A stretch of DNA of 64,000 nucleotides. Origin: a virus. Taxonomy: Duplodnaviria > Caudoviricetes. The notes beneath the pieces were generated by a model, which was not told the origin of the DNA, did not search any database, and saw nothing but the letters and a program-made list of their open reading frames with translations. This document shows positions 20,506-59,614 of the stretch, piece by piece. The stretch's first letter is position 1, and each line of letters starts with the position of its first letter. Position numbers and translations under genes: made by a program. The stretch spans positions 320,001 to 384,000 of IMG/VR virus record IMGVR_UViG_3300027740_000003. One strand, given 5' to 3'.

Positions 20506-21102
20506 TTATTCAATGATATCCTTTATCATCATATTGTCTAGTATCTCTTGTTCAAATTCTTTCCAATCAGGACATAATGCTATTACGGCTATATTATATC
20601 CAGATTGTTCTATTGCAGTTTTTTGAAGTTCTTTTGAAGGGTTCTTTATAAATTGAACAGAATTTCCGTTCTGTTTAACTGCTTCTAATTGTACTTCTTC
20701 GGGAGGATTCTTTATAAATCGAATAGAATTTCCATTTTGTTTAACCGCTAATAATTGCATTTCCTTTGAAGGGTTCTTTATAAGTTGAATAGAATATCCA
20801 TATTGTTTAACTGCTTCTAATTTTATTTCTTTAGAAGGGTTCTTTATATATTGAATAGAATTTCCATTTTGTCTAACTGCTTCTAATTTAGCTTCTTCTG
20901 AAGGATTCTTTATATATTGAATAGAATATGCATTTCGTTTAACCGTTAATAATTGCATTTCCTTTGAAGGATTTTTTATATATTGAATAAAATATACGTT
21001 TTGTTTAATTGCCTTTAAACAACCTGCTTCATTTTCAGGATCAAAACCAATAACTTTTATAATTTCCTTTTTAAGATCCATTTTACTCTTTACTTCCGCC
21101 AA
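20506..21102 (-). CDS. 22-aa tandem-repeat protein (DUF4116-like) with IKDIIE tail
   Basis: Repeats IQYIKNPSxExxLEAVxQNG; ends DNMMIKDIIE. Confidence 0.75.
   Translation of the reverse strand: MAEVKSKMDLKKEIIKVIGFDPENEAGCLKAIKQNVYFIQYIKNPSKEMQLLTVKRNAYSIQYIKNPSEEAKLEAVRQNGNSIQYIKNPSKEIKLEAVKQYGYSIQLIKNPSKEMQLLAVKQNGNSIRFIKNPPEEVQLEAVKQNGNSVQFIKNPSKELQKTAIEQSGYNIAVIALCPDWKEFEQEILDNMMIKDIIE
20799..20930. repeat. 132-bp exact direct repeat, copy 1 (copy 2 at 21747-21878)
   Basis: Identical stretch catattgtttaactgc...gaatagaatatg compared by eye in both repeat-protein genes. Confidence 0.8.
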
Positions 21103-21421
21103 GGTTCAGTCTTAGCATTTGAGCAATGGGAGGAGGAAGATGCGTCATCTCCACGCCACAAGGGCACATGATAGCTCCATTCCTTGCTATAGACGGTTTC
21201 ACGGTCTGCCCACACCGTTGGCACTGCACAGTGAAAGCTTTGTTTACAGGCCTGTTATGAGCCGTTTGGCCCATTGATTTCATCGACACCTTCATGAAAT
21301 GAGTGACGCCTTTTATTACCTTGCCACATGAGCCACAAATTACCTCATTAGTTGCTGTATTTAAAAGGTGTTCCCCCGATTCAAAGCAACCCTTGTTATC
21401 ACACGTTATTAAGATTCCCAT
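21083..21421 (-). CDS. Double zinc-ribbon protein
   Basis: CDNKGC, CGSC, CQRC, CPC; AGGAG SD. Confidence 0.65.
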   Translation of the reverse strand: MGILITCDNKGCFESGEHLLNTATNEVICGSCGKVIKGVTHFMKVSMKSMGQTAHNRPVNKAFTVQCQRCGQTVKPSIARNGAIMCPCGVEMTHLPPPIAQMLRLNLGGSKE

Positions 21422-21453
21422 GTTTTTCTCCTACATAATATATATCAGAAATT

Positions 21454-22041
21454 TTATTCGATTATATCCTTTATTATCATGTTGTCTAAAATTTCTTCAG
21501 CAAATTCTTCCCAATCTGGACATAACATTATTATTTTAATATCATATTTAGATTGTTCTATTGCTAATTTTTGAACTTCTTTAGAAGAATTCCTTATAAA
21601 TCTAATAGAATTTCCGTTCTGTTTAACTGCTTCTAATTGTACTTCTTCGGGAGGGTTCTTTATAAAAAAAACAGAATCTCCTCTTTGTCTAACAGCTGCT
21701 AATTGTACTTCTTTAGAAGGATTTTTTATATATTGAATAGAAAGCGCATATTGTTTAACTGCTTCTAATTTTATTTCTTTAGAAGGGTTCTTTATATATT
21801 GAATAGAATTTCCATTTTGTCTAACTGCTTCTAATTTAGCTTCTTCTGAAGGATTCTTTATATATTGAATAGAATATGTATTTCGTTTAACCGCTTCTAA
21901 TTGCATTTCCTTTGAAAGATTTTTTATATATTGAACACAATTACCATTTCGATTAATAGCTTCAAAACAAGATAATTCATTATCAGGATCAAATCCTATA
22001 ATTTTTATATACAATTTTTTCAATTTATCTTTAGCTAACAT
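21454..22041 (-). CDS. 22-aa tandem-repeat protein (paralog of 20506-21102) with IKDIIE tail
   Basis: Same repeat unit; ends DNMIIKDIIE. Confidence 0.75.
   Translation of the reverse strand: MLAKDKLKKLYIKIIGFDPDNELSCFEAINRNGNCVQYIKNLSKEMQLEAVKRNTYSIQYIKNPSEEAKLEAVRQNGNSIQYIKNPSKEIKLEAVKQYALSIQYIKNPSKEVQLAAVRQRGDSVFFIKNPPEEVQLEAVKQNGNSIRFIRNSSKEVQKLAIEQSKYDIKIIMLCPDWEEFAEEILDNMIIKDIIE
21747..21878. repeat. 132-bp exact direct repeat, copy 2
   Basis: Matches 20799-20930. Confidence 0.8.
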
Positions 22042-23011
22042 TGTTTTCTTTTTCTAATAGTTCAATCAATTTAGAACAATCATCTGGATAATTTACATTT
22101 ATATTAAATATATGGCTGTTTTGATTGCCAGGCCCATATCCTTTCATTCCCATTTTTGTTCCATTTTTAGTCCCGGGATGAATCTTTAAAACTCTCTCTC
22201 CTTTAATTGTTTTTACCTTAACAGACTTTCCTTTTAAAGCTTCCAACAAAGAAATACTAATATTGGTCTCAATATTTTCCCCATCATCATCTAATCGCAT
22301 ATCCGGATCTTCCTCGACATGAACCAATACCTTTAAAGGACCATAATGATCTTGGTATCTTCCATTAATAAATCCCTGTGATGATCCTAGATAATTTCCT
22401 GCGCCATCAGCTGCAACAACAAACTTGTCTCGTAATGGGAAAGGAAGTTCAAAATCAATTGATACAGATTGTTTAACAGACCCGCCTCCATTACATTTAT
22501 CACAATCTATATTTTCTTTACCAGATCCTCCGCAGAAATTGCATACAATCATTTGTTGCATATTTCCTCTTTGGAATATTTTTCCTCCTTTACCATCACA
22601 ATGTGTACATTTGTTATTTCCTTTATGGTTTCCTTGCCCATTACAAGCGCTGCACTTTACATATTTATCATATGACACAGATCTCTTTGCCCCAACCATT
22701 GCTTCTATAAAAGTAAGACTAACTTCAACAACAGGATCTGGATATCTCTTTGGCCCACGGCTTTGATGAAACGAAGATATATTAATAAAATCTGCTATAT
22801 CTACCGGAAATCCGCCAAAATTACGTTCTGGTCTAGGATTTTCTAGAGTGGTTTTGGCTTCATTTATTTTTTTAAACTTCGCTTCTGCATCTGGAGATTT
22901 GTTTTTATCCGGATGCCATTCTTTTGCAAGTCTACGAAATGCTTGATTAATATCCTCCTTGCTTGCGCCGGGGGAAATACCAAGTTCTGAATATGCTTCT
23001 TCTGGTGTCAT
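22031..23011 (-). CDS. dnaJ: DnaJ chaperone
   Basis: J domain with HPD, four CxxCxGxG repeats, C-terminal substrate-binding domain. Confidence 0.93.
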   Translation of the reverse strand: MTPEEAYSELGISPGASKEDINQAFRRLAKEWHPDKNKSPDAEAKFKKINEAKTTLENPRPERNFGGFPVDIADFINISSFHQSRGPKRYPDPVVEVSLTFIEAMVGAKRSVSYDKYVKCSACNGQGNHKGNNKCTHCDGKGGKIFQRGNMQQMIVCNFCGGSGKENIDCDKCNGGGSVKQSVSIDFELPFPLRDKFVVAADGAGNYLGSSQGFINGRYQDHYGPLKVLVHVEEDPDMRLDDDGENIETNISISLLEALKGKSVKVKTIKGERVLKIHPGTKNGTKMGMKGYGPGNQNSHIFNINVNYPDDCSKLIELLEKENNVS

Positions 23012-23012
23012 A

Positions 23013-23679
23013 TTACCAATTGCCCTTCATCCAATTCTTTAAACTCCATATTTTTCCAGTTTTATGATCTACTACATTATCATCTTTTTCTCGATATGTT
23101 CTAACTTTATCTCCACGCATTCCAGAACCAACTTGGTTCTTCCTATTAGCGTTTCTATTATTAACTAATTCTTCTTTTTTTATAGCTTCTATTTTTTGAG
23201 ACAAAATAGCCAATGCTAATCTTTTACTCTGATATTGAGACTTTTCGTCTATTTTAACAGATATGCCTGTTGGAATATGTGTAGCAACAATACAACTATT
23301 TGTTGTATTTCTGTGTTGACCTCCAGGACCAGAACCTCGCTGATCTCTAATATCTATTTGGGACATATCAAGATTATTGATATTAAACTCTAATGGTTCC
23401 AAAACAGCCACAGTTATTGTTGATGTGTGAATTCTTCCTTTTTTATCTGTTGGAGAGCTTCTTTGGAACCTATGCCCTCCTGATTCATTTTTAAATATTT
23501 CTTTTACATTATTGCCAGAAAACAAAACAGATATAAAACCAGATTTTTTATCTAATAAAGAATAGTCAAAGACGCTCCCGCACTGCAACTTTCACATATA
23601 CTCCAAGCATATCTTCAACTAAGAGTTTTGCATCATCTCCGCCTTCTGCTGCTTTTATTTCTATTACTATCGATTGCAT
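23013..23679 (-). CDS. Class I peptide chain release factor lacking domain 1, expressed through a +1 programmed frameshift (about 221 aa)
   Basis: ATG 23679 with AGGAG SD gives MQSIVIEIKAAEGGDDAKLL...RERL-stop (37 aa, RF-like EIRAGTGGDEA motif); +1 frame continues DYSLL...ESGGHRFQRSSPTDKKGRIHTST...GPGGQHRN...KVRTY. Confidence 0.88.
23565..23580 (-). promoter_or_regulatory. prfB-type +1 ribosomal frameshift site (internal SD, CTT TGA C)
   Basis: Minus strand CGG GAG CGT CTT TGA C; same layout as AGG GGG TAT CTT TGA C of E. coli prfB. Confidence 0.85.
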
Positions 23680-23693
23680 ATTGGTCTCCTACC

Positions 23694-23909
23694 TTATTCT
23701 ATTATATCCTTTATCATCAGATCAATTTCAGACAATTTTTCAAAACAACCATCGTTAACCAATACGCGAAAATATTCAATATCTCTTAGATGTCTAACAT
23801 AATTAAATTCTCTAAATTTATATTCAAACTCATAAAATCTACCAAAATTTGTTAGTTTATACAATATACCTTGATGAAAAGGTATGAAAAAACATATTAT
23901 TAACATCAC
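23694..23909 (-). CDS. Small protein with IKDIIE tail
   Basis: Ends EKLSEIDLMIKDIIE. Confidence 0.6.
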   Translation of the reverse strand: MMLIICFFIPFHQGILYKLTNFGRFYEFEYKFREFNYVRHLRDIEYFRVLVNDGCFEKLSEIDLMIKDIIE

Positions 23910-23945
23910 AACAACACTTTTGTTTGCATAAATAATATTCTGGCT

Positions 23946-24248
23946 TCACTCAATAATATCCTTTATCATCAAGTTATCTAATATCTCTTGTTCAAATTCT
24001 TCATCAAAATTTTGCCAATCTGGGCACATAAAAACAACCCAACAATCATATTTACTTTCTCTAATTAATGATTTTTGAAAATTAATTGACGGATTTTTAA
24101 TTCCCATACCCCTACCACCTATATATGTGCTAGTAATAGAAATTCCATAAACATTTTTCTTTTTTAAACGATCTTCATAAGTAGATTCTGCCCAAGTCTT
24201 ACATAATTTGTTTTTTACCACTTGTTTTAGTTTTTCTGACATTTCCAA
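23946..24248 (-). CDS. Small protein with IKDIIE tail, related to the repeat proteins
   Basis: Ends CPDWQNFDEEFEQEILDNLMIKDIIE; contains IKNPS. Confidence 0.65.
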   Translation of the reverse strand: MEMSEKLKQVVKNKLCKTWAESTYEDRLKKKNVYGISITSTYIGGRGMGIKNPSINFQKSLIRESKYDCWVVFMCPDWQNFDEEFEQEILDNLMIKDIIE

Positions 24249-24777: not shown

Positions 24778-24872
24778 ATACATATATATAACATATGTAG
24801 TTCCGTGTTGATTAATAACAACAAGGGAGAACATAATTATGCTCTCCCTCATTATCATTTGTTCAATTTTAT

Positions 24873-25547: not shown

Positions 25548-25549
25548 TG

Positions 25550-32846: not shown

Positions 32847-33155
32847 CTAGAGTCTTCTTGGTTTGTTGCCACCTGGCTCATTTTCTATTGCCCTGAGGAC
32901 AGCTTCGAATTCATTAATGATATTATCACAATTTGCACCATTACAACGTACATTAACATTACAGATACCAAAAGTACAAGTTCCTATGAAATTTTCTTTT
33001 TTAGCATAAAGAAGACCAGCTTTAATGTAATTGTCTGGACAAATAAACCCAGCTTGTTGGAATAGTATAACATGATTATTTCTTACTGGACGCAAAGTAG
33101 TCATCACAATCGACTTTCTTCCACAACAACCTTTTGTAATTCTTCGTTCTACCAT
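32847..33155 (-). CDS. Small Cys-rich hypothetical protein
   Basis: 102 aa, AAGGT SD. Confidence 0.55.
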   Translation of the reverse strand: MVERRITKGCCGRKSIVMTTLRPVRNNHVILFQQAGFICPDNYIKAGLLYAKKENFIGTCTFGICNVNVRCNGANCDNIINEFEAVLRAIENEPGGNKPRRL

Positions 33156-33162
33156 GATACCT

Positions 33163-33456
33163 TTATTCTATTATATCCTTAATGATTAGTTCTTCATTTG
33201 ATAACTTTTTAATATATTCTCCCACAAACAATTTGGGCAATATTTCCCACCAATAACGAATTAAAACTGAGCCTGACTTTTTATATTCTTCAATGTAAAC
33301 AAACCAAATACCATTAGTATACATATCTGTGTTGCCATCAATGTTTTTAACAAATCCAATAACATAACAATTGTTTTCCTCAAAAGAAATCGGGCCTCCT
33401 ATATTATAAGTTTTATTACAATAATAAACTCCCCCTAACTCTGGACCCAATATCAT
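33163..33456 (-). CDS. Small protein with IKDIIE tail
   Basis: Ends KKLSNEELIIKDIIE. Confidence 0.65.
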   Translation of the reverse strand: MILGPELGGVYYCNKTYNIGGPISFEENNCYVIGFVKNIDGNTDMYTNGIWFVYIEEYKKSGSVLIRYWWEILPKLFVGEYIKKLSNEELIIKDIIE

Positions 33457-33731
33457 TCAATTATATCCTTAATCATTACTTCTTCATCCGAAAGTTTTTC
33501 CAACACTCCAGATTCTATTAATTGGTTTAATATCCATTGAGTTGTCGTAAAACAATAACAGCTATTTTCTTCTGTTAATATACAATATAGCTCGTCATCC
33601 TCCCAATGGGTTTCTATATAACATTCATTTTCTATCAAAGTCATATTTAAATTAGACTTTAGACACAAGTAAACATTATAAAAATAGGCCTGAACTTCCC
33701 CAGAAAGAATATTCAGGCCCATCTTTTTCAT
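33453..33731 (-). CDS. Small protein with IKDIIE tail
   Basis: Ends EKLSDEEVMIKDIIE. Confidence 0.65.
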   Translation of the reverse strand: MKKMGLNILSGEVQAYFYNVYLCLKSNLNMTLIENECYIETHWEDDELYCILTEENSCYCFTTTQWILNQLIESGVLEKLSDEEVMIKDIIE

Positions 33732-33732: not shown

Positions 33733-34062
33733 TTACAGCGACTTCTTTATAAACACACAATATCTTGCTTTAGCCTCATTAACTTTAATTCCATCCTTGT
33801 AAACCCTCGCCGCATCCTGATACACTTCCTTCTTTTCCTGCAAATCAGTATCAGCATCCATGTCTTTTTCAAAATCAGCAATATTCTCACTGTATTTTAC
33901 AATCATGCCATTTAAGTCTTCTTTATTTGCCTGCTGAGCTACGTCTAGAAAATCATCTGCTTTTCCAGATCCGTCATCATTTAAACAAAGCTTCTCTAAT
34001 ACTGTCCTCCACTTCTTTGGAAAATTATCTAACCTGGGATCTGTTGCTTTCTTTTTTGCCAT
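33733..34062 (-). CDS. Hypothetical protein
   Basis: 109 aa, AGGAG SD. Confidence 0.6.
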   Translation of the reverse strand: MAKKKATDPRLDNFPKKWRTVLEKLCLNDDGSGKADDFLDVAQQANKEDLNGMIVKYSENIADFEKDMDADTDLQEKKEVYQDAARVYKDGIKVNEAKARYCVFIKKSL

Positions 34063-34066: not shown

Positions 34067-35293
34067 TTATACTCCTACAATCTTTGTATTATCTACCAGC
34101 CACTGCAATGTATAGTCTACTTTTGCTTTAGCAATTAGGCCTATTAATGTTCCGTCCTGTGATGCTCTCTGTATCCAAGCATCAACATTCTGTATTCCCC
34201 TTTGGGCTAATGTCTGTTTTAGCATAGACACTGCCTCCAATTCAGAAATTACAGTCTCTGGTTCAGCTTTATTAATAGAATCAAGAATTAAAGTAAACTT
34301 AACGTTGTCTTTTCCTCTAGCAAGGTATGCAGTTTTAATATCTTCTTCTATTGTCTCCCAAAGTTTAAATCCTTCCATCATTGACATATGTTGAGCTTCC
34401 ATTAATACAGACCATGTTGGAGGCTCAAAATCATGTGAAGAAACCAATGTTGCCTTTATCTGCTCAGCAATCAATGAATCTCTATTTGATTTAAATTGGT
34501 TTTGAGCAATTGTTTTTGCCGTATTAAATAATTCTTCCAAACTATTCAAACCAACTTTTTTAGCCAATTCATCGTCAAGCGGAGCAGCAACCTGCTTCAT
34601 TCCCATATGAAAATTAACTTTACATGAAGTTTTCTTTCCATTAATATCCAACTCAAACTCTCGTGTTTCACCAGGAGACATTCCAAACAAGTTTTCATCA
34701 AATTCAGGATAGATCTTCTGCCCAACTTGATATAACTGACCCTCTTTTGTTTCTTCTCCTACAGTGTAGTCTAATGTGATTCTGTCTCCAGCTTGGATAA
34801 AATCACCGTCGCCATATGGAGTTATATCAGAATGTTGTGTTCTAACGCCTTGAACGATCTGCTCTGCCATTTCGTCCACTGTTTTAGGAGAATGTGGTTC
34901 TGGAACCTCAATTCCTTTATACTGTTTCAATTCAAAATCTGGTTTCTTAAGATAAACCAACTGACAAGAGAATTCATTGCCTTTTAATGAATGTTTTTCT
35001 ACTTGTGGTTGACCAAGAGGAGTCATTTTTGTTTCATAAATGACATCATCATTGGCTTGATTGAGCATTTCTCTTTCAACCCATTGCTTGATCTTATCTT
35101 TGAAATGAACTTTAATAGCAACATCTGTTGCTTTTCCTGGTCTAAAACCAGGAACCGGCAGCTTCTTAAGGTTATAAATTGCTTCCTTATTCTTTTCGGA
35201 AACCACCTTAGAATCTGCCGTGTAATTAACTCTAACTTTACAATATTCAATTTCTTCTGTTGATACTTGTAGTTCTGACATATTTTTTACCAC
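34067..35293 (-). CDS. tig: Trigger factor
   Basis: Ribosome-binding signature VPGFRPGKA; reduced FKBP-like middle (GDRITLDY, FDENLFGMSPGETREF); helical C-domain. Confidence 0.88.
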   Translation of the reverse strand: MVKNMSELQVSTEEIEYCKVRVNYTADSKVVSEKNKEAIYNLKKLPVPGFRPGKATDVAIKVHFKDKIKQWVEREMLNQANDDVIYETKMTPLGQPQVEKHSLKGNEFSCQLVYLKKPDFELKQYKGIEVPEPHSPKTVDEMAEQIVQGVRTQHSDITPYGDGDFIQAGDRITLDYTVGEETKEGQLYQVGQKIYPEFDENLFGMSPGETREFELDINGKKTSCKVNFHMGMKQVAAPLDDELAKKVGLNSLEELFNTAKTIAQNQFKSNRDSLIAEQIKATLVSSHDFEPPTWSVLMEAQHMSMMEGFKLWETIEEDIKTAYLARGKDNVKFTLILDSINKAEPETVISELEAVSMLKQTLAQRGIQNVDAWIQRASQDGTLIGLIAKAKVDYTLQWLVDNTKIVGV

Positions 35294-43183: not shown

Positions 43184-43705
43184 TCAAGAACCATCCTCGG
43201 CATCTTCGTCAATAGCTTTCTTGATATCAGACAAAACCTTCTTCATTTGAACTACCTGATAAGCAAGGTCATTTATTGTATCTCTTTGGATTAAAATTGC
43301 TCTAAATAATAGATTGTTAAGACCAATTGATCCTAATCCCTCTGGCTGGCTCTGATCATTATTCATCCTTAAACCAACATCACATAGTTGATTTATTAAT
43401 TCGCTTTCATAATCCTTCTTAATTGGACCTTTATTTTCTTCTAAAGTCCTGTCTTTTAATGTTGATTTAAATTTTCCAGATAACTCCATTACCCTTTGTC
43501 TAATATCATTTTCATTCTTTTGATGATTTATAACCTCTTTATCAAAATCTATAGCTGTCTTCTTAACAGGCGCATCATCATCTTTCGCGAATCTAGATTT
43601 CTTTACCAGATTTTCTTTCAAATTAGCTTTTGGAGGAGCTGCGTCTGTCTGATCATCTGTAAATGCATTATAATTTATCTTTTCTGGCTTATTCATTTTA
43701 TTCAA
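43184..43705 (-). CDS. Hypothetical protein
   Basis: 173 aa co-oriented. Confidence 0.55.
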   Translation of the reverse strand: MNKMNKPEKINYNAFTDDQTDAAPPKANLKENLVKKSRFAKDDDAPVKKTAIDFDKEVINHQKNENDIRQRVMELSGKFKSTLKDRTLEENKGPIKKDYESELINQLCDVGLRMNNDQSQPEGLGSIGLNNLLFRAILIQRDTINDLAYQVVQMKKVLSDIKKAIDEDAEDGS

Positions 43706-44081
43706 TATCCAATATTACTGCTCCCGAATCTTCACCTGGGAGTTTAGGTTCACAGGATCCTATATCACCAGATACGCCTGCTGCTTTACGAATATTATCA
43801 ACAATCTCATTTTCAAAATAATCTACAATACTTTGAGCTTTTTCTGAAGAAATATACATTCCATGGAAATCAGCTGTTCTAATAACTAAATTCCATAAAG
43901 AATCCTGGATATCCTGTTTAAAATCAGATACAGGATAAGTATAAGAAGCTGACGCTTCTCTTACAGGATTTTTTTCAACCTGCCTCGTAATATTTTCAGC
44001 AAGTTTGGTTAATTGAAGTTTATCGGCTTCATCTGCTTCTGCTACTAACCTGTCCCTATAAATCTCTGATATTGTTCTCAT
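43698..44081 (-). CDS. Hypothetical protein
   Basis: 127 aa co-oriented. Confidence 0.55.
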   Translation of the reverse strand: MRTISEIYRDRLVAEADEADKLQLTKLAENITRQVEKNPVREASASYTYPVSDFKQDIQDSLWNLVIRTADFHGMYISSEKAQSIVDYFENEIVDNIRKAAGVSGDIGSCEPKLPGEDSGAVILDIE

Positions 44082-45442: not shown

Positions 45443-45886
45443 TTACCTAAAACCTCTTATCTTATTTAATTTAACTTTGGTTTTCTTTATATTACTTTTA
45501 GCAACTATTTTTATTTGTTTTTCTTCTAATTGTTTTGATTCTTCTTGCGTCAATAATAATTTTAAATACAAGCCACAAGATTTGTGTTCAAGCAAGAATT
45601 TTTGAAATAATTGTATTTTTTGTTCCGACCACAAATGCCTACTAGAAACAACCTGATCGAATTTATTCTGCATATTTTGAAGAATATGTCTTATTGCATT
45701 AAAATCCAGTGCTGCTTTCGAAAACAACTCACAATTATCTAAATAATCCATAATTTCATTATAGTTGTCTAACCCCGAATGCACCAATAGTATTCTGTTT
45801 TCGCAGGAGCTACAGCTTATAAAACCATCATCAGACCTGCCAAAACAACCTAACACTAAATATAGTTGTTCTGTTTCAGAAACCAC
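45443..45886 (-). CDS. Hypothetical protein
   Basis: 147 aa with CSSC and CGL. Confidence 0.5.
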   Translation of the reverse strand: MVSETEQLYLVLGCFGRSDDGFISCSSCENRILLVHSGLDNYNEIMDYLDNCELFSKAALDFNAIRHILQNMQNKFDQVVSSRHLWSEQKIQLFQKFLLEHKSCGLYLKLLLTQEESKQLEEKQIKIVAKSNIKKTKVKLNKIRGFR

Positions 45887-45899: not shown

Positions 45900-46268
45900 T
45901 CAGAGAAGTTTCTTCCTGAGTATTTTCTCAACTTTTCCTCTACGCTGATAATAAACATAATCATCATCAGCTACTGGTACCGTTTCAACCCGCTCCACAG
46001 TAATAAAACCACCATCTGTAGCGTTTACAGTATATTTGCTTCCAATAGCACTTCCTAAAGATGCTATTACTGCCTGAGATTTTGGCTTAAGAAAAAGCAC
46101 ATCACCAGGAACAGGCTTCATTTCTACATGGTTTCTTACTGTTTGATCGGCTAAAGCGTACATGTCAATTGGAAGATCCTTGATTTCTTTCCAAATCTTT
46201 CCAGCAACTCCCAGCTTTTCACAAAGTTCTTCCTCTGATACGGTCTTTTTTGTTTCTTTCTCGGTCAT
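45900..46268 (-). CDS. Hypothetical protein
   Basis: 122 aa, GAGGG SD. Confidence 0.55.
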   Translation of the reverse strand: MTEKETKKTVSEEELCEKLGVAGKIWKEIKDLPIDMYALADQTVRNHVEMKPVPGDVLFLKPKSQAVIASLGSAIGSKYTVNATDGGFITVERVETVPVADDDYVYYQRRGKVEKILRKKLL

Positions 46269-46295: not shown

Positions 46296-46607
46296 TTAAG
46301 CTGCTAACAATTCTCTAAAAACTTTCCTCATCGGCTCGATAAGTGTCATTCCATTAATTCTTTTTACCTCTTCCCCATCTTTTAATAAAATCACCGAAGG
46401 AAGACTCTTAACTTTAAATCTTTGAACAATCTCTGGAGCTTGTTCTATTTCTACAGAAATAAATTTTATATCTGGAAATTCTTCTTCTAATTTCAACATT
46501 GATGGGTGCATTTGTTTACAAGGCCCGCACCAGGTTGCCCAAAACTTTACGGCAATAAATTTTCCATCAGAAACATTAAATTCATTAGAATCAAGAATTG
46601 GTTGCAT
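46296..46607 (-). CDS. trxA: Thioredoxin
   Basis: VKFWATWCGPCK, VKSLPS. Confidence 0.93.
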   Translation of the reverse strand: MQPILDSNEFNVSDGKFIAVKFWATWCGPCKQMHPSMLKLEEEFPDIKFISVEIEQAPEIVQRFKVKSLPSVILLKDGEEVKRINGMTLIEPMRKVFRELLAA

Positions 46608-47878: not shown

Positions 47879-48360
47879 TTATTATCCTTTATGTTTTTTA
47901 TTAACCACACCATTGATGGAAGATTTTTTGATATTTCTTCGGAAATATCATCTCCTTTACTAACAAATTCTATAACAGAATGGAAAGATCCGTCTTTCAA
48001 CCTTTCCTCAAATAATCTAAATTCAACAGGCTCATAACTATTTGTTTTCAACCCTACATTTGTTTTATAAGTCAACGAAACATTAACTAACGGATTTTGT
48101 CTAAATGTTTTAGTGTTTAAACCAGACTTAATTAATTTTTCTTTCAAATTCTCTAAATGAGACTGGGTTTGTTTTAATTCTTCTTTCAAAGAATTTGATT
48201 TTTTTAAATAGCACTCATTACATAGCCACATTGTTCCCCAACCCAAACCACCACCAAGCAAAACTGGAAACGTTTGTTGTTGCTCATGTAGTGTTTTAGG
48301 ATCATCACAAAGCTCACATAAACCACAATTATCTTCTAATGAAGAAAACGCTTTCGTCAT
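47875..48360 (-). CDS. Zn-finger plus coiled-coil hypothetical protein
   Basis: CELC...CNEC; 161 aa. Confidence 0.5.
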   Translation of the reverse strand: MTKAFSSLEDNCGLCELCDDPKTLHEQQQTFPVLLGGGLGWGTMWLCNECYLKKSNSLKEELKQTQSHLENLKEKLIKSGLNTKTFRQNPLVNVSLTYKTNVGLKTNSYEPVEFRLFEERLKDGSFHSVIEFVSKGDDISEEISKNLPSMVWLIKNIKDNK

Positions 48361-48914
48361 GATGCCTTTGCTTCCTTTTTCTTACCAAGAGTTGCAGAAA
48401 GAACCTTTCCCTGCATTGAAGGCACATCTAGAAATTCAGCATTTGGAATCATTTCCAAAAACTTGTTCAAAGTCTGCATTCCAACTTCCCTGTGAGTAAT
48501 CTCCCTGCCTCTGAAAATAATGAATACCTTGACCTTGTCCCCATCGGCTAAAAACTCAGAAGCTTTATTTGCCTTGGTCCTAAGATCATTAATATCTGTT
48601 GTCGGTCGGAATTTAAGCTCTTTAATCTTTATAACAGCTTCCCTGTTCTTTTTTTCGGACTCTTTACGCTTTTTTGTCTGCTCATACTTGAATTTGCCAT
48701 AATCTAATATTTTACAAACCGGAATTCCTTGCTGACCATCAGCAATAAGAACAAGATCTAGTTCTTGCTCCTTTGCTTTATTTATAGCCTCTTCCTTGGT
48801 TAGTGTCCCAAGGTTATTACCATCCTTATCTATGCAAACAACTTGTGTTGCCCTAATTCGGTAATTAATCGGTTTGTCCTTATCTGTCCTATTAAAATTT
48901 TTGTTATATACCAT
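48357..48914 (-). CDS. infC: Translation initiation factor IF-3
   Basis: INYRIRA, LDLVLIA, PVCKILDYGKFKYE, KELKFRP, DKVKV.IIFRGRE. Confidence 0.95.
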   Translation of the reverse strand: MVYNKNFNRTDKDKPINYRIRATQVVCIDKDGNNLGTLTKEEAINKAKEQELDLVLIADGQQGIPVCKILDYGKFKYEQTKKRKESEKKNREAVIKIKELKFRPTTDINDLRTKANKASEFLADGDKVKVFIIFRGREITHREVGMQTLNKFLEMIPNAEFLDVPSMQGKVLSATLGKKKEAKAS

Positions 48915-49137: not shown

Positions 49138-50112
49138 TCAAAGCCCAAATCTCACCCCTAGCATTACAGCCACATCACCCTTTAGACTTGTTGAAACAGT
49201 CGGTCCCAAAAATACATTATTAACTAATGGCAACGGATGACCAATATTATAATTCACAGGACTAACCACAAATACAAATCTGTCCTGTACCGCTTCGTAG
49301 CCCCCACCAAGCCCTAGGAAGGTCCAATTAGGGTCAGGCCTAGTCCTGCCAAAAGAAAGCAAAGACAGCTCTAGGCTGGGAGTAAACGCCACCGAGGGTT
49401 CTGTAAAGTATGCCCCAACATCTGCTCCCGCATACAAACGAGGATCCCAACGAAACTTAGCTTTTGGATACTGCTCCACAAACTTTGCTTCATTCACCTT
49501 AAGATCATACTTCTTTCCATCTACTGTTATAGAAAACTTATTATATACATAATGTCTTCCTTCTTCGTCTTGGCCAAGAACATTTACTACACCATATTCT
49601 CTCTTGTCTATCTCAAGATCCCAAGGCTTATCCTTCCAAGCAGAGAAGCCTACAGAACCAAATGGAACAGCTTTGTCAGCAAAAGGTTCAGTTAAAGCTA
49701 ATTCTTGCCTTTTCGCATTATATTCAAATGGATCTGGATTAGTAGGATCGATAGGAGTTGGGTTGTCATTAGGAGTAGTTGTAGTAGAAGGAAGATTTGT
49801 TCCAGAATAACCGGAAGAAATAACCTGAACAGTTGATATCCCTTCTATCTTTGCCCCGAGTTTCTTTAAATCTTCCTGAATTGGTTTTAAATCAATATCC
49901 GACTTTTTTGCGAAAACTTCTAAATCTTTCTTCTGAATATAATAAGACTGAGCTCGAATGATATCATCTGACAATTGCTTCTGGGCAACAACAGACTTTT
50001 CTATTGTTTGAAGTTTATCCATCTGATCATTTTGACATTTAATAACACATAACAGGCTTGCTATAACGGCAGCAATTCCCGTTCCAACACCAACTTTTTC
50101 TTTCCAGTTCAT
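49138..50112 (-). CDS. Membrane-anchored protein with beta-strand-rich C-terminus
   Basis: N-terminal hydrophobic segment, coiled coil, alternating aromatic/hydrophobic strands ending MLGVRFGL. Confidence 0.5.
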   Translation of the reverse strand: MNWKEKVGVGTGIAAVIASLLCVIKCQNDQMDKLQTIEKSVVAQKQLSDDIIRAQSYYIQKKDLEVFAKKSDIDLKPIQEDLKKLGAKIEGISTVQVISSGYSGTNLPSTTTTPNDNPTPIDPTNPDPFEYNAKRQELALTEPFADKAVPFGSVGFSAWKDKPWDLEIDKREYGVVNVLGQDEEGRHYVYNKFSITVDGKKYDLKVNEAKFVEQYPKAKFRWDPRLYAGADVGAYFTEPSVAFTPSLELSLLSFGRTRPDPNWTFLGLGGGYEAVQDRFVFVVSPVNYNIGHPLPLVNNVFLGPTVSTSLKGDVAVMLGVRFGL

Positions 50113-50408
50113 AGTTCCATGTCCTTATCTATATCTCGTATAGCTTGTTCAACTTTTTCTATAATTTCTTTATGCTTTGCTTCAGGTTCTCTCGAAAAAA
50201 GAATTATCAATTGACCATATTCTTGTCCGACCGATTTGATTAAATCCGAACACCTAAATTTGCCAAGCATTTCGTCAATTAAAACAATCCAAGCAACCGG
50301 AATATTAGATATACAAACAGATGGATATCTTTCTCTTATGACATCCGTCTCGGATTCATTAAACTCATGACGGGAATCAAATATCTTTTTGTATTCAAAT
50401 AGAGTCAT
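50109..50408 (-). CDS. Hypothetical protein
   Basis: 99 aa, ATGA overlap. Confidence 0.5.
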   Translation of the reverse strand: MTLFEYKKIFDSRHEFNESETDVIRERYPSVCISNIPVAWIVLIDEMLGKFRCSDLIKSVGQEYGQLIILFSREPEAKHKEIIEKVEQAIRDIDKDMEL

Positions 50409-50991
50409 AGTATTTTATGAATGAAAGAACTGTTGCTAAATCTTTTGCTGCATCAACTTTTGCCGCTGGATTACGTAATAGGTATGATGGGTGATAGACG
50501 GGGAAAACAGAAACGTCCCAATCCTCAGACGCACCATTATCTATTTTTGTTGTAAATCTCTGACCGTGTCTTTTGGTTATACCTTCTCCGGGACCAATTA
50601 GAGCCTCCATAGCTGTTCCACCAAGAGCAACAATACATATTGGTTGGATTACCTGAAGCTGCATTTTTAAATAAGGCAAACATAATTCTATTTCATCTGG
50701 TTCCGGTTTTCTGTTGTCTGGAGGACGACAATGAACCGTATTGCTTATAAAAACATCTTCCCTTTTCAATCCCATGTTTGCAATCATCTTATCAAGTAAT
50801 TTGCCTGCTCGGCCTACAAAAGGCCGGCCAGAAATATTTTCATCGGCACCGGGCCCTTCGCCCACCATAGCAATCTTTGCATTAGGATTCCCCTCTCCAG
50901 GAACAGTTAAGGTTCTTCCTTCACATAATTTACACTTCTCACATTGAGAAATATCTATTGCTATTAAATCAAGAAGGTTTTGTTTTATCAT
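50395..50991 (-). CDS. Uracil-DNA glycosylase family 4
   Basis: CEKCKLC, VGEGPG..E, GRPFVGRAG, NTVHCRPP, YHPSYLLR. Confidence 0.93.
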   Translation of the reverse strand: MIKQNLLDLIAIDISQCEKCKLCEGRTLTVPGEGNPNAKIAMVGEGPGADENISGRPFVGRAGKLLDKMIANMGLKREDVFISNTVHCRPPDNRKPEPDEIELCLPYLKMQLQVIQPICIVALGGTAMEALIGPGEGITKRHGQRFTTKIDNGASEDWDVSVFPVYHPSYLLRNPAAKVDAAKDLATVLSFIKYYDSI

Positions 50992-51512
50992 TGGTCCTCT
51001 TTGTTATATTCGGGGACATATACGAATCTACTAATTTTTCCTTTAAAATTCATTTCAACACCAATTCTTCCCCAGTCGTCTTCGCACCCAACCAATCCAT
51101 TTAAAACACCCAAGAAACCAATTCGTGGGTTTATATTATTTCCATCACAATCTTTATCAACTATAACAGTTAAATCTTCATTATTTGCCAAATCCCAATT
51201 AATTGAAACTCTTTCATTAACTAAACCTTTTATTGCCTCGGGATCTTTTTCAAGAAGATCATTGAAAAAATCTATTATTGGTTGAGGATCTGCTTTGTTG
51301 TTATCATATGGAGCTTCTGTTGAGGTCATTCCAGCCAAGGCCCCGAATATTGTTAATTTATCGTCATAAAAATGAATTGTAGGATGTTGACGCAGATCAT
51401 TATTAACTGGTACTTTAATTAATAAAATCTTCTCTGTTGCTTCTGGATCTAACCTTCGCATTGTATCCAAAAGATCTGCTACATATTGAGGATGAATTAC
51501 CGGATTATCCAT
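50988..51512 (-). CDS. Hypothetical protein
   Basis: Likely start MDNPVIHPQ at 51512 behind GGAG SD. Confidence 0.5.
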   Translation of the reverse strand: MDNPVIHPQYVADLLDTMRRLDPEATEKILLIKVPVNNDLRQHPTIHFYDDKLTIFGALAGMTSTEAPYDNNKADPQPIIDFFNDLLEKDPEAIKGLVNERVSINWDLANNEDLTVIVDKDCDGNNINPRIGFLGVLNGLVGCEDDWGRIGVEMNFKGKISRFVYVPEYNKEDQ

Positions 51513-51513
51513 A

Positions 51514-52038
51514 TTACTTATCTCCACTTGACCCAAAACCGGCCCTATTGCCAGTTCTTTCAGAACAAAGTTTTTCAAACTCTTCAGTTGATATTATCAA
51601 TATATGCATCTCTTGCCGTTTTACTGGAATTATTTGTCCAATACGTTCTCCAAAATCTATCTTTAACTCATTATCATTAAAATATTCTTCTAAATCAGAA
51701 GAAACAATATCATTTGGCCCACCAAAATGGAATATTGGCGGGATCCATTGAACGGCAAGTTTCCAATTGTAAGAAAACGTTTCATCAATTGTACCATAAA
51801 GACAATGCAATGATTTCTTTGCAAATGTAGAAGATCTCGGTTTTAATTCCGCCCACCATTCATTTGGCGCAAAAGCTCTAAACCCAAGATTTATTAATGC
51901 TTTATCAAATGGTCGAAGAACAACACCATTCTTTTCTGCACATCTTACATCCCAACCAGTAGCATTAGGTTCACTTCTAGTAGGAAGAAAACTATTATCT
52001 AATCCTTCGTCAAGAACAAATTTAAAGTATGGAATCAT
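51514..52038 (-). CDS. dut: Trimeric dUTPase
   Basis: ATGWDV, PRSS, GTID, ERIGQII, RAGFGSSG. Confidence 0.88.
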   Translation of the reverse strand: MIPYFKFVLDEGLDNSFLPTRSEPNATGWDVRCAEKNGVVLRPFDKALINLGFRAFAPNEWWAELKPRSSTFAKKSLHCLYGTIDETFSYNWKLAVQWIPPIFHFGGPNDIVSSDLEEYFNDNELKIDFGERIGQIIPVKRQEMHILIISTEEFEKLCSERTGNRAGFGSSGDK

Positions 52039-53278: not shown

Positions 53279-53281
53279 ATT

Positions 53282-55514: not shown

Positions 55515-55600
55515 CTTTTTTTATGCACACACCAAAAAAAACAACTGTCTGTGAAGTTCTATAGAGACTTCAACAAATTCGTAATCAGAGCCGTACACAA

Positions 55601-56785
55601 TTATGCCTCTTCTTTTTGAATTACTTCCATCAAAACATCCATAATAAAATCTCTTAAAGATGAAAGCTGATGAATTCCAACTTCATATTTAAATGCCTTA
55701 TTGATCATTTGTGCTGGTTTTGCTATTACAACCTCTTTAGAAGCTACACCAACAAAGTTCAATCTTCGCTGGCCTCCCAAGCAATCTGCATCACCTTCAC
55801 GCAAAACCAGACCGTACATATTAAAATCTTCATGGCCTTTATTAACTAATAGATTACAAAGCCTACCAGATTCTTTTCTTCGAGTCTTCATATCAAGACG
55901 AGTAGTTCCGTATTTAAAATCTCCAGAATCTCCCATGCCCGTATAATGTTTTCTATCTGGATCTTCTCTCCTATCAAACCCCAGATGATCATATATCGGA
56001 TTCATAAGATAAGCAAACATAGCTTCTCCATCTATTGTATCCAACCTAGACCCCCTATGATTTCTCTCCATAACAATTTGATTATGATCTTTGTTTTCTT
56101 TAGAATCAGGTTCAATTAACATAGAGAAAGTAATAAACCCATCATTTGCTATATTAATTTCTTTATTTTGAAGATCTTTAAAGATTCTGTGAAGCTGATT
56201 GTCAAAATCTAAAATGAAATTCTTTAGATTTTCTTTCCTTTGCTCTAAAGGAATAGATGGTTTTTTTGGAGCAGCAGGAATCTCTGGGGCCAGCTTTGCT
56301 ACAAATTTTTGTTTTTCCGCAGCAACGAGAGCTTTTAAATCATCAAATTCACTTGGTTTTGAAGGTATAGGAAGTGGAACGGGGGACCAGGTTGCTTTGT
56401 TATTGTTTTCGCAAGGAAGAAAAGTAAACCCAAGCATTCCATGTGCTTGTCTGCTTTCTTTGCCAGACTTGTATTGTATAAGATCTTCATCAATTGGAAT
56501 AAACTCATCTGAATCTTTTAACCACAACTCTGTTATGTTATTTTCATCAAGTGTAAACTTTGCTTCAGTATTAGCGTGGGTTTTTAAAAATTCTATTTGT
56601 TCCTCGGTAAGTTTGTCTAAAGAATAAGACGACACAGAAAATTTCTTTCCAAGCATCTTAATAGACCAATGATATCCAAATTGGTTTTTAGAAACAGTTA
56701 ATTTATCAGTAATATAATTTTCCGTTTTATAATAAATATTATCAGCGACTAGATCTAGTTCAGAAAGAAGATTAGTTTGATTCAT
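55601..56785 (-). CDS. Hypothetical protein
   Basis: 394 aa, GGAG SD; no recognised motif. Confidence 0.6.
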   Translation of the reverse strand: MNQTNLLSELDLVADNIYYKTENYITDKLTVSKNQFGYHWSIKMLGKKFSVSSYSLDKLTEEQIEFLKTHANTEAKFTLDENNITELWLKDSDEFIPIDEDLIQYKSGKESRQAHGMLGFTFLPCENNNKATWSPVPLPIPSKPSEFDDLKALVAAEKQKFVAKLAPEIPAAPKKPSIPLEQRKENLKNFILDFDNQLHRIFKDLQNKEINIANDGFITFSMLIEPDSKENKDHNQIVMERNHRGSRLDTIDGEAMFAYLMNPIYDHLGFDRREDPDRKHYTGMGDSGDFKYGTTRLDMKTRRKESGRLCNLLVNKGHEDFNMYGLVLREGDADCLGGQRRLNFVGVASKEVVIAKPAQMINKAFKYEVGIHQLSSLRDFIMDVLMEVIQKEEA

Positions 56786-56885
56786 CCAATATCTCCAACG
56801 TCATGAAACAGTTTTGTACCTGTCCTTTTGATATTGAAGATACACATCTAAGGTCTCTCGATTATTGAGATTCCTTTCTTGATAT

Positions 56886-57263
56886 TCAAAACCACATCCG
56901 GTGAAGGTTTTTAGCAAGCAACAGTGTGGCTTTTTCAAACCTAATTCGATCACAATCTTCTACCAGAGCATCACACTCGATTGTCTTTTCTAGCATCCAC
57001 ACTATTTCTTTAAATGCCTCTATGGCTTCCGGCCGACTAAACGGATCTATTTTGATAAGCCTTTTTAACCTTGGCAACATAAATTTAGCAACAGTAATGT
57101 CTAAACTCCACAGCTCATCATCTGAGAATCCTCGAGTCAATTTTTGTTTCCATAATTGTAAACGACGTTTCAAAAGTCCAATGTCCAAACAGGGCCATCT
57201 TATTGATAAATTAAATCCTTTTATAAAATCAAACTCTCCTATCAAACCATATGGAAAAATCAT
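56886..57263 (-). CDS. Hypothetical phage protein
   Basis: 125 aa, RGFSDDELWSLD. Confidence 0.55.
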   Translation of the reverse strand: MIFPYGLIGEFDFIKGFNLSIRWPCLDIGLLKRRLQLWKQKLTRGFSDDELWSLDITVAKFMLPRLKRLIKIDPFSRPEAIEAFKEIVWMLEKTIECDALVEDCDRIRFEKATLLLAKNLHRMWF

Positions 57264-57589
57264 TTTTCTTTGCTTTCTTCTAACTGTTTTTCTGCAATTT
57301 TGCGCAGAGTTTTATATATTTCTTCGTATTGCTTAAATTGACCCTCTGTATTATTGCCTTTTCCCCAGATATTATGAAACTGATCATGACATATTTTACA
57401 AAGAGACACGCCATTTACTAGTAAATATCGTTTTTCAGGATAAGCATTCCAGGCCCAAACATGATGACTTTCTAAATAAACATCCTTTGCCAAACAAATT
57501 GCACATTGGAAATTACCGGCAGTTTTTACTGCTCTTGACCATTGTTTATACTTTTCATCATTATCTCTGTCATCTGACATACATTTCAC
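57260..57589 (-). CDS. HNH endonuclease family protein
   Basis: CAIC...LESHH...NGVSLCKICHDQFH. Confidence 0.8.
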   Translation of the reverse strand: MKCMSDDRDNDEKYKQWSRAVKTAGNFQCAICLAKDVYLESHHVWAWNAYPEKRYLLVNGVSLCKICHDQFHNIWGKGNNTEGQFKQYEEIYKTLRKIAEKQLEESKEK

Positions 57590-57819
57590 TTCACATTTTT
57601 GCTTATCTTAGCGCCTCGGAAGATAATCACCGGATCCCTTCCTTGTGCAGCCCTAACTTTAATTTCTGTATTATATTTGTCATCTAGATATACTAGTCTG
57701 CTCCAATCATCATGGCCCAAATCAGTAAAATCATTGATTATTACAATTACTCCGTTGCTTTCATCATATTCAGCAACAGCAATTACTCCACCAACACTAG
57801 CAAAAATATCTTCTATCAT
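57586..57819 (-). CDS. Hypothetical protein
   Basis: 77 aa, ATGA overlaps. Confidence 0.5.
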   Translation of the reverse strand: MIEDIFASVGGVIAVAEYDESNGVIVIINDFTDLGHDDWSRLVYLDDKYNTEIKVRAAQGRDPVIIFRGAKISKNVK

Positions 57820-58271
57820 TTCAACAAATCCTGTAATCTTCCTTTATTTTGTTCAATCCATTGAGAAACTTTTTGTTCCTCAGATTCGGCCGGACTTTCT
57901 CCTCCAACAAATCCTTGATCCTGATTATAAGATTTCGTGTGCGCAGCTTCATGAGCCACTGTTAATGCTGCCTGAATAATTGCCTCTGGCCCTTGTCCTA
58001 ATCCTTTTATTTTACCAATATTTATATTTAGAATAGCAGGATCTTTGTTTGGACCTGATTGCACAAATCCATAATACATAGATGCCGGAGAAACTTGAAT
58101 CTGCCTTATTCCTTTGAAATAAGTCGGGTCCATTCTCTTAAGAAGTTCTACCGCTTTATTTATTGTTGGTTCCATTGGTTGAACAACAACATTGGGAGAT
58201 TCTAACGCTTGGTCTATAATTTGACCATATTTTGCTAAAAAATACTTGGCCAATATATTAATTTTGCTCAT
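57816..58271 (-). CDS. HExxH metallopeptidase-like protein
   Basis: VAHEAAH with downstream E (PAESEE). Confidence 0.6.
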   Translation of the reverse strand: MSKINILAKYFLAKYGQIIDQALESPNVVVQPMEPTINKAVELLKRMDPTYFKGIRQIQVSPASMYYGFVQSGPNKDPAILNINIGKIKGLGQGPEAIIQAALTVAHEAAHTKSYNQDQGFVGGESPAESEEQKVSQWIEQNKGRLQDLLK

Positions 58272-58285
58272 GTATATATGTTATT

Positions 58286-58570
58286 TTATTCTATTATATC
58301 TTTAATCATCATTTCTACACAAAGCAAAACGTCATTATTCCCATAATATGAACCCTTGTAAATATAATAAAAAGGATATTTTGTTGACATTGGCCTTAAC
58401 TGAGATATAATCTGAAAAAATTCTATATCAGTATCAGTATCAGAATGATTAATACAACGCATACCACATTTTTTACAATTATAAACTCTCGATTCGTTAG
58501 AATTATCTAAAGGTTTATAATTGTCGTCTATGATAAATTCATGATCCTTCTTTGCTTCTTCCGGCAGCAT
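58286..58570 (-). CDS. Small H/CxxC/C zinc-binding protein with IKDIIE tail
   Basis: DHEF...CKKC...LCVEMMIKDIIE. Confidence 0.7.
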   Translation of the reverse strand: MLPEEAKKDHEFIIDDNYKPLDNSNESRVYNCKKCGMRCINHSDTDTDIEFFQIISQLRPMSTKYPFYYIYKGSYYGNNDVLLCVEMMIKDIIE

Positions 58571-58794
58571 TATTCTATTATATCCTTGATAATATATTCG
58601 TCATATCTAAGACACGGATAATAATCATCTAACAAAAGCCAGTCAGCAATCTTTAATCTTCTCAATACATCTCCTTGATTTTGATCTAAAGAATTTAATA
58701 AAAGAGCATAAAATTTTCCACAATGTATACATTTCCCATCAATAAAACGATGTCTTATTCTGTCTCCCGTTATTTCTATTCTGTTATTTTTCAT
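58570..58794 (-). CDS. Small H/CxxC/C zinc-binding protein with IKDIIE tail
   Basis: RHRF..CIHC...YYPCLRYDEYIIKDIIE. Confidence 0.7.
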   Translation of the reverse strand: MKNNRIEITGDRIRHRFIDGKCIHCGKFYALLLNSLDQNQGDVLRRLKIADWLLLDDYYPCLRYDEYIIKDIIE

Positions 58795-58803
58795 CTAAAT
58801 TCA

Positions 58804-59097
58804 TTATTCTATTATATTTTTTATAATTATCTCATCACAAGAAAGCTCCTGTAATTCATAAGACGTTTCCCATAAAATTGGTTTTCCATATCCAACATAA
58901 AACCCTTGATCTAAAGCTTTCATGTTGTATATGTTTTCTTGCCAATCGTTTTCATTTTTATAAAGACGTAAAACTAAACCACATTTTTTACATTTATAAT
59001 TGATAAAATCAAAATCATAAGCTCTATTACCTAGGGAAAAACCTTGATCATAAAAAATTACAAATTCGTGATCCTTCTTTCCTTCTTCCAGCAACAT
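58804..59097 (-). CDS. Small H/CxxC/C zinc-binding protein with IKNIIE tail
   Basis: DHEF...CKKC...LSCDEIIIKNIIE. Confidence 0.7.
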   Translation of the reverse strand: MLLEEGKKDHEFVIFYDQGFSLGNRAYDFDFINYKCKKCGLVLRLYKNENDWQENIYNMKALDQGFYVGYGKPILWETSYELQELSCDEIIIKNIIE

Positions 59098-59384
59098 TAT
59101 TCTATTATGTCCTTTATAACCATATCAATACACGACATTTGTTGAGCTTCATATGAAAGTTTATATGTTCTAAAATCATAATACCAGCCCTGTTCATATG
59201 CCAAACTGTTATATACATTTTTAATACACAATTCCGGATTTTCAATTACACATAATGTAATTTTACATTTGCTGCATCTATAATAATGCATGTCAGAATT
59301 TTTACATTCGGGAAGATCATATCTTTCAGTTGAAATGAAAACAAAATTATGATCAGCAATGGCACTTTCAGGAATTGGTCTCAT
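59097..59384 (-). CDS. Small H/CxxC/C zinc-binding protein with IKDIIE tail
   Basis: DHNF...CSKC...MSCIDMVIKDIIE. Confidence 0.7.
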   Translation of the reverse strand: MRPIPESAIADHNFVFISTERYDLPECKNSDMHYYRCSKCKITLCVIENPELCIKNVYNSLAYEQGWYYDFRTYKLSYEAQQMSCIDMVIKDIIE

Positions 59385-59614
59385 TCAATAATGTCCTTTA
59401 TCATTGCTTCACTCTCTGTTAAACATGGATAATATTTGTCTAAAACGGAATCTATAATATCAAATGTTTGTCCGAAAGAACGACTATATTCTTTTTCATG
59501 TTCTTTTTTTAATTTGTTCAATAACAAAAAATAACTTTTCCCGCAAATTCTGCACCCATATCCATTTTGGTTTTGAAAATGAACAAACCTATGATTCATT
59601 CTCTTTTCTGGCAT
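59381..59614 (-). CDS. Small H/CxxC/C zinc-binding protein with IKDIIE tail
   Basis: NHRF...CRIC...YYPCLTESEAMIKDIIE. Confidence 0.7.
   Translation of the reverse strand: MPEKRMNHRFVHFQNQNGYGCRICGKSYFLLLNKLKKEHEKEYSRSFGQTFDIIDSVLDKYYPCLTESEAMIKDIIE

Follow-up and report, generated by a model that had tools for sequence, protein, structure and literature searches.

Constant C-terminal elements that bring many variable proteins to one partner are known from poxviruses and giant viruses, as well as from eukaryotic sorting. The PRANC domain of poxvirus ankyrin proteins folds into an F-box-like unit of ~40 residues and binds Skp1, and the KDEL/HDEL and PTS1 (-SKL) tails are recognized by the KDEL receptor, a PQ-loop-fold protein, and by PEX5, respectively. 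On a smaller scale, the XB peptide at the extreme C-terminus of SspB docks on the ClpX N-domain. We know of no address arrangement of the viral or eukaryotic kind in phages. Here we describe a short C-terminal peptide, IK[DN]IIE, hereafter the tag, that ends eleven small proteins encoded in a stretch of 64,000 nucleotides (the window) corresponding to bases 320001-384000 of a single contig of 435,004 bp and 35% G+C, the genome of an uncultured soil phage (G000). Of the sequencing runs, only a soil metagenome contains this DNA in full and may be where it came from; no RNA run is listed.

The original prediction, made from the letters of the window, proposed that the tag belongs to a modular address system in which a free C-terminal peptide recruits interchangeable payloads to one hub, and did not recognize this as a described system. 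Consistently, our literature search found no paper on the tag: the string IKDIIE surfaced only in an unrelated context, and the literature on huge phages with C-terminal motifs and on DUF4116 yielded nothing relevant.

One sixth of the phage genes end in the same peptide

When G000 is translated in six frames, the hexapeptide IKDIIE is met 74 times (0.002 expected from residue frequencies), and all 74 copies stand directly before a stop codon. Carried from the window over the whole genome, the strict pattern I[KR][DN]II[ED] gives 87 matches, 86 of which precede a stop, and the tag is also present in related records. When near spellings are included (IKDIIQ, IKNIIE, IRDIIE, IKDIIT, IKDLIE and others), the tag is present on 119-128 open reading frames (ORFs) of 40 aa or more, that is about one sixth of the ~680 predicted genes, most of them in tandem arrays.

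The carriers are small (median length 96 aa), soluble and fast-evolving accessory proteins, many of them predicted to bind zinc and nearly all orphans. A transmembrane (TM)-like segment is found in 4% of them, a CxxC motif in 40% as compared to 14% of untagged small proteins, and a Pfam search of ten larger tagged proteins returned no family above threshold. Grouped by BLASTP (E<1e-3) after removal of the tag, their bodies fall into 83 groups, of which 69 are singletons. DUF4116 repeats, found in G000 only among 39 related records and yet tagged there, represent the clearest case of a tag gained by an imported domain. The predicted modularity of the tag and lack of relationship among its carriers are therefore supported at the scale of the genome.

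Selection acts on the peptide

Compared with their consensus, 119 tags show 327 nucleotide differences, of which 259 affect third codon positions; entropy is 0.9-1.5 bits there versus 0-0.44 bits at first and second positions. Counted by codon, 241 differences are synonymous and 59 non-synonymous, the synonymous share of possible single changes being 17%. In the upstream half of the motif, conservation is seen at the level of amino-acid class only. Third-position, synonymous variation combined with class-level conservation upstream indicates that the selected object is the peptide, as had been proposed from the synonymous codons of the eleven window tags (ATA/ATT/ATC, AAG/AAA, GAT/GAC, GAA/GAG, and TAA/TGA at the stop), all of which we recovered.

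The tag sequence may also serve translation of the following gene. Shine-Dalgarno (SD)-like sites at -13 to -8 precede 37% of the phage genes, against a background of 6%. The next start adjoins the tag stop (-4 to +6; coupled tags) in 89 of 119 cases, and 70 of these 89 do so through an ATGA overlap, which explains the excess of GAA and TGA in tags. At the lysine position, an AAG or AGG codon, which yields AAGGA nine bases before the ATG, is used by 56% of coupled tags, 30% of uncoupled ones, and 25% genome-wide (Fisher p = 0.019), an enrichment that supports the secondary SD role suggested in the original prediction. SD sites are found at 58% of tagged and 54% of untagged junctions. The loss of the tag in the absence of a coupled gene, which would point to conservation of the DNA only, was not observed: the peptide is retained in 30 uncoupled tags, and 37 coupled tags have AAA, hence no SD.

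The tagged ORFs of the window and their neighbours

All eleven tagged ORFs of the original prediction are present where it had placed them, on the minus strand and with the tag directly before the stop. The strict pattern gives eleven matches in the six-frame translation of the window, all in these ORFs and all followed by a stop; ten end in IKDIIE and one (58804-59097) in IKNIIE. Instead of the three families first proposed, BLASTP separates them into six groups.

The first group gathers DUF4116 repeat proteins. It includes a predicted alpha-solenoid of 198 aa at 20506..21102 (ending in ILDNMMIKDIIE; PF13475, E 9e-20, 70.4 bits against a gathering cut-off of 24.9), a repeat protein of 195 aa at 21454..22041 (ending in ILDNMIIKDIIE; E 2e-18, 66.3 bits), and a short CPDW-type member of 100 aa at 23946..24248 (ending in ILDNLMIKDIIE), which has no Pfam match and was placed here through BLASTP. 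Two groups lie in a five-gene array of putative zinc proteins. The H-CxxC-C family, recognized from its alignment, comprises 58286..58570 (94 aa, ending in LLCVEMMIKDIIE), 58804..59097 (97 aa, ending in LSCDEIIIKNIIE, the D to N variant), and 59097..59384 (95 aa, ending in MSCIDMVIKDIIE), while the second zinc group (HRF...CxxC...YYPC) was delineated by BLASTP and contains 58570..58794 (74 aa, ending in YDEYIIKDIIE) and 59381..59614 (77 aa, ending in TESEAMIKDIIE), the stop of the latter overlapping the next start. The remaining three ORFs are singletons whose common features are an LSxxE cap and the tag only: an orphan of 71 aa at 23694..23909 with no Pfam family (ending in KLSEIDLMIKDIIE), one of 97 aa at 33163..33456 (ending in KLSNEELIIKDIIE), and one of 92 aa at 33453..33731 (ending in KLSDEEVMIKDIIE), whose stop overlaps the next start (GAATGA).

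Directly after the zinc array, positions 57816-58271 (minus strand) encode an orphan of 151 aa with an HEAAH motif, acidic residues ~20 positions downstream of it, and no Pfam family. This protein, which is possibly a mini-metallopeptidase judging from its motif, is 45-56% identical across tagged genomes and two tagless fragments. Genes linked to proteostasis and translation also stand among the tagged genes, at 22031-23011, 23013-23588, 34067-35293, 46296-46607, 48357-48914, and 50395-50991 (all on the minus strand). Pfam confirmed a thioredoxin, IF3, and a uracil-DNA glycosylase in this list of six; the others we take, from inspection of their sequences alone, to be DnaJ-like, release-factor-like (191 aa, with a GGQ motif), and trigger-factor-like proteins.

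Two observations on the wider gene set can be added. The stop codon TAG is scarce in tagged genes (4 of 119, versus 62 of 662 for all G000 genes; p = 0.03). A separate motif, L[AS]xxFx[KR]x[AY], is present in seven copies in G000, where shuffled sequences would give 0.5, and most copies fall in the first 25 residues of proteins that have no tag (sites at 131025, 140390, 143149, 152578, 158387, and 298166); its carrier at 131025-131909 is presumably kinase-like, as judged by eye.

Anatomy of the tag helix

Numbered back from the final residue, the logo of the tag is L(-12)-[ST](-11)-x-[DE](-9)-[DE](-8)-h-h-I-K-D-I-I-E. It reads as the end of an N-capped, amphipathic C-terminal helix of ~13 residues, with IK[DN]IIE forming its last two turns, a hydrophobic stripe at -1, -2, -5, and -6, and an E/K/E series at i/i+4 spacing. 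The H-CxxC-C zinc family has invariant H10, C36, C39, and C87, and in the zinc families the cap position is a Cys, predicted to be the final metal ligand.

AlphaFold2 (AF2) models of two unrelated families include the tag in the terminal helix. In the DUF4116 solenoid at 20506 (model confidence, pLDDT, 95), the last helix spans residues 180-197, and pLDDT falls to 68 over the final eight residues as compared to 94-98 in the body; this drop suggests that the tag projects past the folded body and is likely exposed. In the zinc protein at 58804-59097 (pLDDT 69), the tag is a helix of residues 87-96 that begins at the invariant Cys87. A fold search with the solenoid model matched designed and armadillo-type repeats only. 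For the zinc model, Foldseek returned weak WRKY-like matches (E 0.1, TM score 0.4-0.5), and its four-stranded sheet is weakly similar to zinc DNA-binding domains of the WRKY/FLYWCH type.

Distribution among phages

We mapped the spread of the tag with DNA pattern scans and fetched genomes, and found that each tag-bearing genome has its own spelling, kept over unrelated families. G000 uses IKDIIE. G001 (458,729 bp, complete) has ~110-145 carriers with the looser form I[KR][ED]II[EKT], G007 (a 131-kb fragment) uses IKNIIE, and G004 (115 kb) ends in K-E-I-I-stop without the final E (34 matches versus 0 in the control); several smaller fragments also have the tag. The few tagged G000 proteins with homologues elsewhere match proteins of tagged genomes only, each with the local spelling. 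No C-terminal peptide of any kind is enriched in the complete tagless relatives G008 and G028, and both tag spellings are at control level in 28 further large contigs. In a tree of the shared AAA ATPase, the tag-bearing records form one clade, with G004 at its base.

Outside these records, bacterial and archaeal genomes scanned for the pattern gave isolated single matches only, and the tag is enriched in none of them. In the GenBank phage collection, neither a near-DNA match to the region nor an AAA protein homologue was found, and the final 40 residues of one tagged protein, used in a word-indexed protein search, returned only the query itself.

A small phage also has the tag. G005 (IMG/VR 3300014205_000153) is a complete genome of 36.9 kb (36,869 bp) with a 123-bp terminal repeat and two genes ending in MIKDIIE (13627-13995, minus strand; 17734-18075, plus strand). 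The tail-fibre-like genes of this phage share 64-67% identity with G000 196837-201621, which, together with its tagged genes, suggests that the small phage and the megaphage share a host and have exchanged genes.

In G007, 22 paralogues end in TDEEW[IL]IFQIIN (e.g. 44331, 85314, 113006-114392, and 118245-123194), an ending with the helix skeleton of the tag in which K, D, and E are replaced by F, Q, and N. As the 22 carriers are members of a single paralogue family, we rejected it as a second multi-family tag.

Search for a reader

To find a protein that might read the tag, we took a phyletic profile of genes present in G000, G001, and G007 but absent from the tagless G008. The first candidates were ClpP, a YjoB/Cdc48-like AAA ATPase of 439 aa, an AAA_5 protein, and a GHKL ATPase. 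The AAA ATPase is present in all tagged genomes and also in 29 tagless large contigs, ClpP and the AAA_5 protein are both found in the tagless G028, and the GHKL ATPase occurs in many tagless genomes. None of them is therefore tag-specific, though any could be an older hub that the tag later exploited. IF3 was likewise discarded, as it has nucleotide-level matches in tagless records. No ClpX/ClpA-type AAA_2 module is present in the G000 genome. The HEAAH protein is encoded by each of the four large tagged records, but the two tagless fragments encode it as well, and it has no tag neighbours in G001 and G007; the DUF4116 solenoids were rejected as the reader, being restricted to G000.

Among tested candidates, only one shows a perfect co-distribution with the tag, albeit within a single clade. 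This is a PQ-loop/SemiSWEET-like gene of 92 aa located outside the window (G000 151522-151800, minus strand; PF04193, E 1e-12), which is present in all 4 large tagged records but in none of 30 tagless ones, and lies within tagged arrays in all four. The protein is of the 3-TM SemiSWEET type, and three of these genomes retain its usual sugar-pocket W/N. A complex prediction with two copies of it and a zinc-family tagged protein scored 0.01, which weighs neither way. If it were the reader, a system similar to the KDEL receptor would have evolved independently, gathering the K-[DE]-I-I(-E) tails of over 100 phage proteins at the cell membrane, a scenario that we regard as a long shot. There are ~15 more clade-specific small orphan genes besides the PQ-loop gene, which we treat as a lead only. 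Our shortlist of clade-specific candidates comprises the PQ-loop gene, window ORFs 32847-33155, 33733-34062, 43698-44081, 45443-45886, 45900-46268, 50109-50408, 50988-51578, and 57816-58271, and G000 383694-384541 and 415029-416091.

Of the modular address system originally proposed, the modularity, the action at the level of the peptide, and a spelling specific to each genome therefore stand, but the hub itself was not recovered.

Regarding the conserved megaphage AAA ATPase (G000 386265-387584; relatives P0008, P0021, and P0034), some of its relatives contain Hint/homing-endonuclease (intein) domains. In distant relatives, the conserved block of the AAA gene comprises HU, a DksA-like protein, two ClpP, an FtsK-like protein, topoisomerase I, the AAA gene itself, and ribosomal protein S21.

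A docking helix as the favoured explanation

We consider, with modest confidence, that the tag is best explained as a docking helix that a single partner recognizes in trans. An identical hexapeptide on unrelated bodies, its terminal position, the purifying selection on it, and its genome-specific spelling together fit such a helix best, and a reader shared in trans would be expected to yield a spelling that differs between genomes but is common to unrelated families within each. The constant helix would tether each variable body, along with whatever that body binds, to the common partner. Its hydrophobic face (I-5, I-2, I-1, and the two preceding residues) may dock in a groove, with K-4 and D-3 conferring specificity, and in coupled genes the lysine codon would double as an SD element for the next gene. 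The existence of a single reader, the docking of the helix, and what docking achieves are all deduced from these patterns.

The timing of expression may give a clue to function. A promoter-like class of the form cTTGACA-N16-17-TTAnnnT, with a G+C-rich spacer in an A+T-rich genome, is found in ~25-30 copies in G000, examples being those ahead of 4097-6322, 10695-12626, 123946-124380, 157578-157796, 176658-177683, and 406218-407219. They are concentrated in accessory regions and often precede tagged arrays, several lying directly upstream of them. From these sequences we infer that the tagged arrays are probably transcribed early by a host sigma-70-type polymerase, in a host that uses SD sites. 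Sigma-70-like promoters ahead of several arrays would favour a role of the tagged proteins in early host takeover or anti-defence, assembled on the hub and more adaptor-like than late virion cargo.

Several results weigh against a docking helix read in trans. No reader was found by the profile across tagged and tagless genomes, and because a single clade holds all tag-bearing genomes, any co-distribution of a gene with the tag amounts to a single event. The AAA ATPase, ClpP, and the GHKL ATPase occur in many tagless relatives. G005 has two tagged genes yet lacks every clade-specific candidate, which leaves room for a host protein as the reader or for a tag that acts with no reader at all. The final residue of the tag is variable (E, Q, T, L, K), and in one lineage the tag stops at II, which makes a precise carboxylate clamp unlikely. 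Finally, the tag helix of the zinc family starts from an invariant ligand and is modelled with a confidence equal to that of the core, thus it may form part of the fold there.

The strongest alternative, although we think it unlikely, is a cap acting in cis, the helix stabilizing marginal small proteins or shielding their C-termini from tail-reading host proteases, with no reader needed. It would account for the missing reader, for the presence of the tag in a small phage devoid of the clade-specific genes, and for the anchoring of the helix at the zinc site in one of the families; moreover, E(-8)/K(-4)/E(0) are suitably spaced for i/i+4 salt bridges, as is [ST]xx[DE] for an N-cap. However, many sequences would do for such a cap, yet 74 proteins of dozens of unrelated groups keep an identical hexapeptide under strong purifying selection, its spelling changes genome by genome across families, and thirty related megaphages do without it.

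Somewhat less probable is self-association, in which tags bind each other in mixed oligomers or a common assembly and the reader is the tag itself. This would likewise yield concerted conservation across the genome and makes sense of the hydrophobic stripe of the amphipathic helix, but a stable helical bundle is hard to build from two to three turns, and the heptad is not continued upstream, where D/E occupy -8 and -9.

We give still less credit to a degron through which a host or phage AAA+ protease would clear early proteins at a set time. The strictly C-terminal position, the phage-encoded ClpP and AAA ATPase, and the early look of the tagged genes would all be in line with it. However, the sequence of a degron is usually not tightly constrained, the acidic and helical tail differs from the non-polar ones of the ssrA type, the ClpP and AAA genes are also found in 29 tagless relatives, and the genome has no ClpX/ClpA-type AAA_2 module.

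Capsid targeting, where tagged proteins would be packed in the head and injected like T4 internal proteins or encapsulin cargo, appears very improbable. The payloads are indeed small or rod-like (median 96 aa), the I-I-E ending resembles the I/L-x-E site of T4-type head proteases, and encapsulin cargo peptides are C-terminal. Against this, several arrays lie behind sigma-70-like, presumably early, promoters, structural genes are common to tagless relatives, and the terminal E is dispensable.

Lastly, that the tag is only the apparent product of a nucleotide-level signal (a translation-initiation cassette, a promoter, or a recombination joint) is scarcely credible and largely refuted as a primary cause since, notwithstanding the 89 of 119 tags that abut the next start, 70 of them via ATGA, and the enrichment of AAG in coupled tags, variation is synonymous with a period of three, 37 coupled tags lack an SD while 30 uncoupled ones keep the peptide, SD sites are found at 58% of tagged versus 54% of untagged junctions, and the upstream half is kept at the amino-acid level only.

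Should a docking helix indeed be read by one partner, the phage would possess a proteome-scale address system in which a handle of 13 residues serves more than 100 interchangeable, fast-evolving payloads. It would then give a name to a whole class of phage "dark matter", as one sixth of the genes of this genome are orphans readable by their tag alone. The tag could be used as bait to reach the hub and the bodies to reach their targets, and the pair might provide a compact natural docking module for engineering.

Comparison with known systems

The tag is likened here to the SspB XB peptide, to PRANC, to KDEL/PTS1, and to cargo-loading peptides, full membership being established in none of them. 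With SspB it shares the principle of an extreme C-terminal peptide that joins a variable body to one machine, and the phage does encode ClpP and an AAA ATPase. However, the two peptides are unrelated in sequence, there are over 100 carriers here versus a single adaptor, no ClpX-type module is present in G000, and the YjoB/Cdc48-like AAA ATPase is found in 29 tagless genomes as well as in all tagged ones. The ssrA-type degrons recognized by ClpX (C-motif 1) have a non-polar, LAA-like tail, whereas the tag ends in DIIE (with Q/T/K/L variants) after an acidic upstream half.

Like the T4 capsid targeting sequence and encapsulin peptides, which bring unrelated proteins to an HK97-fold shell, the tag is short and portable. 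The T4 sequence is however N-terminal and cleaved by the head protease at L/I-x-E, while the tag is at the extreme C-terminus with nothing downstream to cleave; encapsulin cargo peptides are extended and Gly/Ser/Leu-rich, and the tagged genes look early. The effector motifs RxLR, PEXEL, and the Dot/Icm C-terminal E-block also consist of one short motif on hundreds of diverging small proteins, but these serve secretion, and here no export machinery is evident and TM-like segments are found in 4% of the carriers.

As with KDEL/HDEL and PTS1, the signal is a free C-terminus on many unrelated carriers (74 of 74 copies at the stop, 83 body groups), and a PQ-loop gene co-distributes with it. Even the core is alike, being K-[DE]-x-x, and G004 ends in K-E-I-I-COOH. 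The differences are that KDEL and PTS1 are eukaryotic endomembrane signals, and that the phage PQ-loop protein looks like an ordinary SemiSWEET. The poxvirus ankyrin/PRANC proteins and the F-box/BTB proteins of giant viruses differ in having a folded docking domain in the case of PRANC, as opposed to a 13-residue helix on mostly unrelated bodies in a bacterial virus. They nonetheless display the same overall design, namely large, fast-evolving sets of proteins with a variable target part and a constant C-terminal dock to one host hub, a hub that would also exist here if the docking reading is right.

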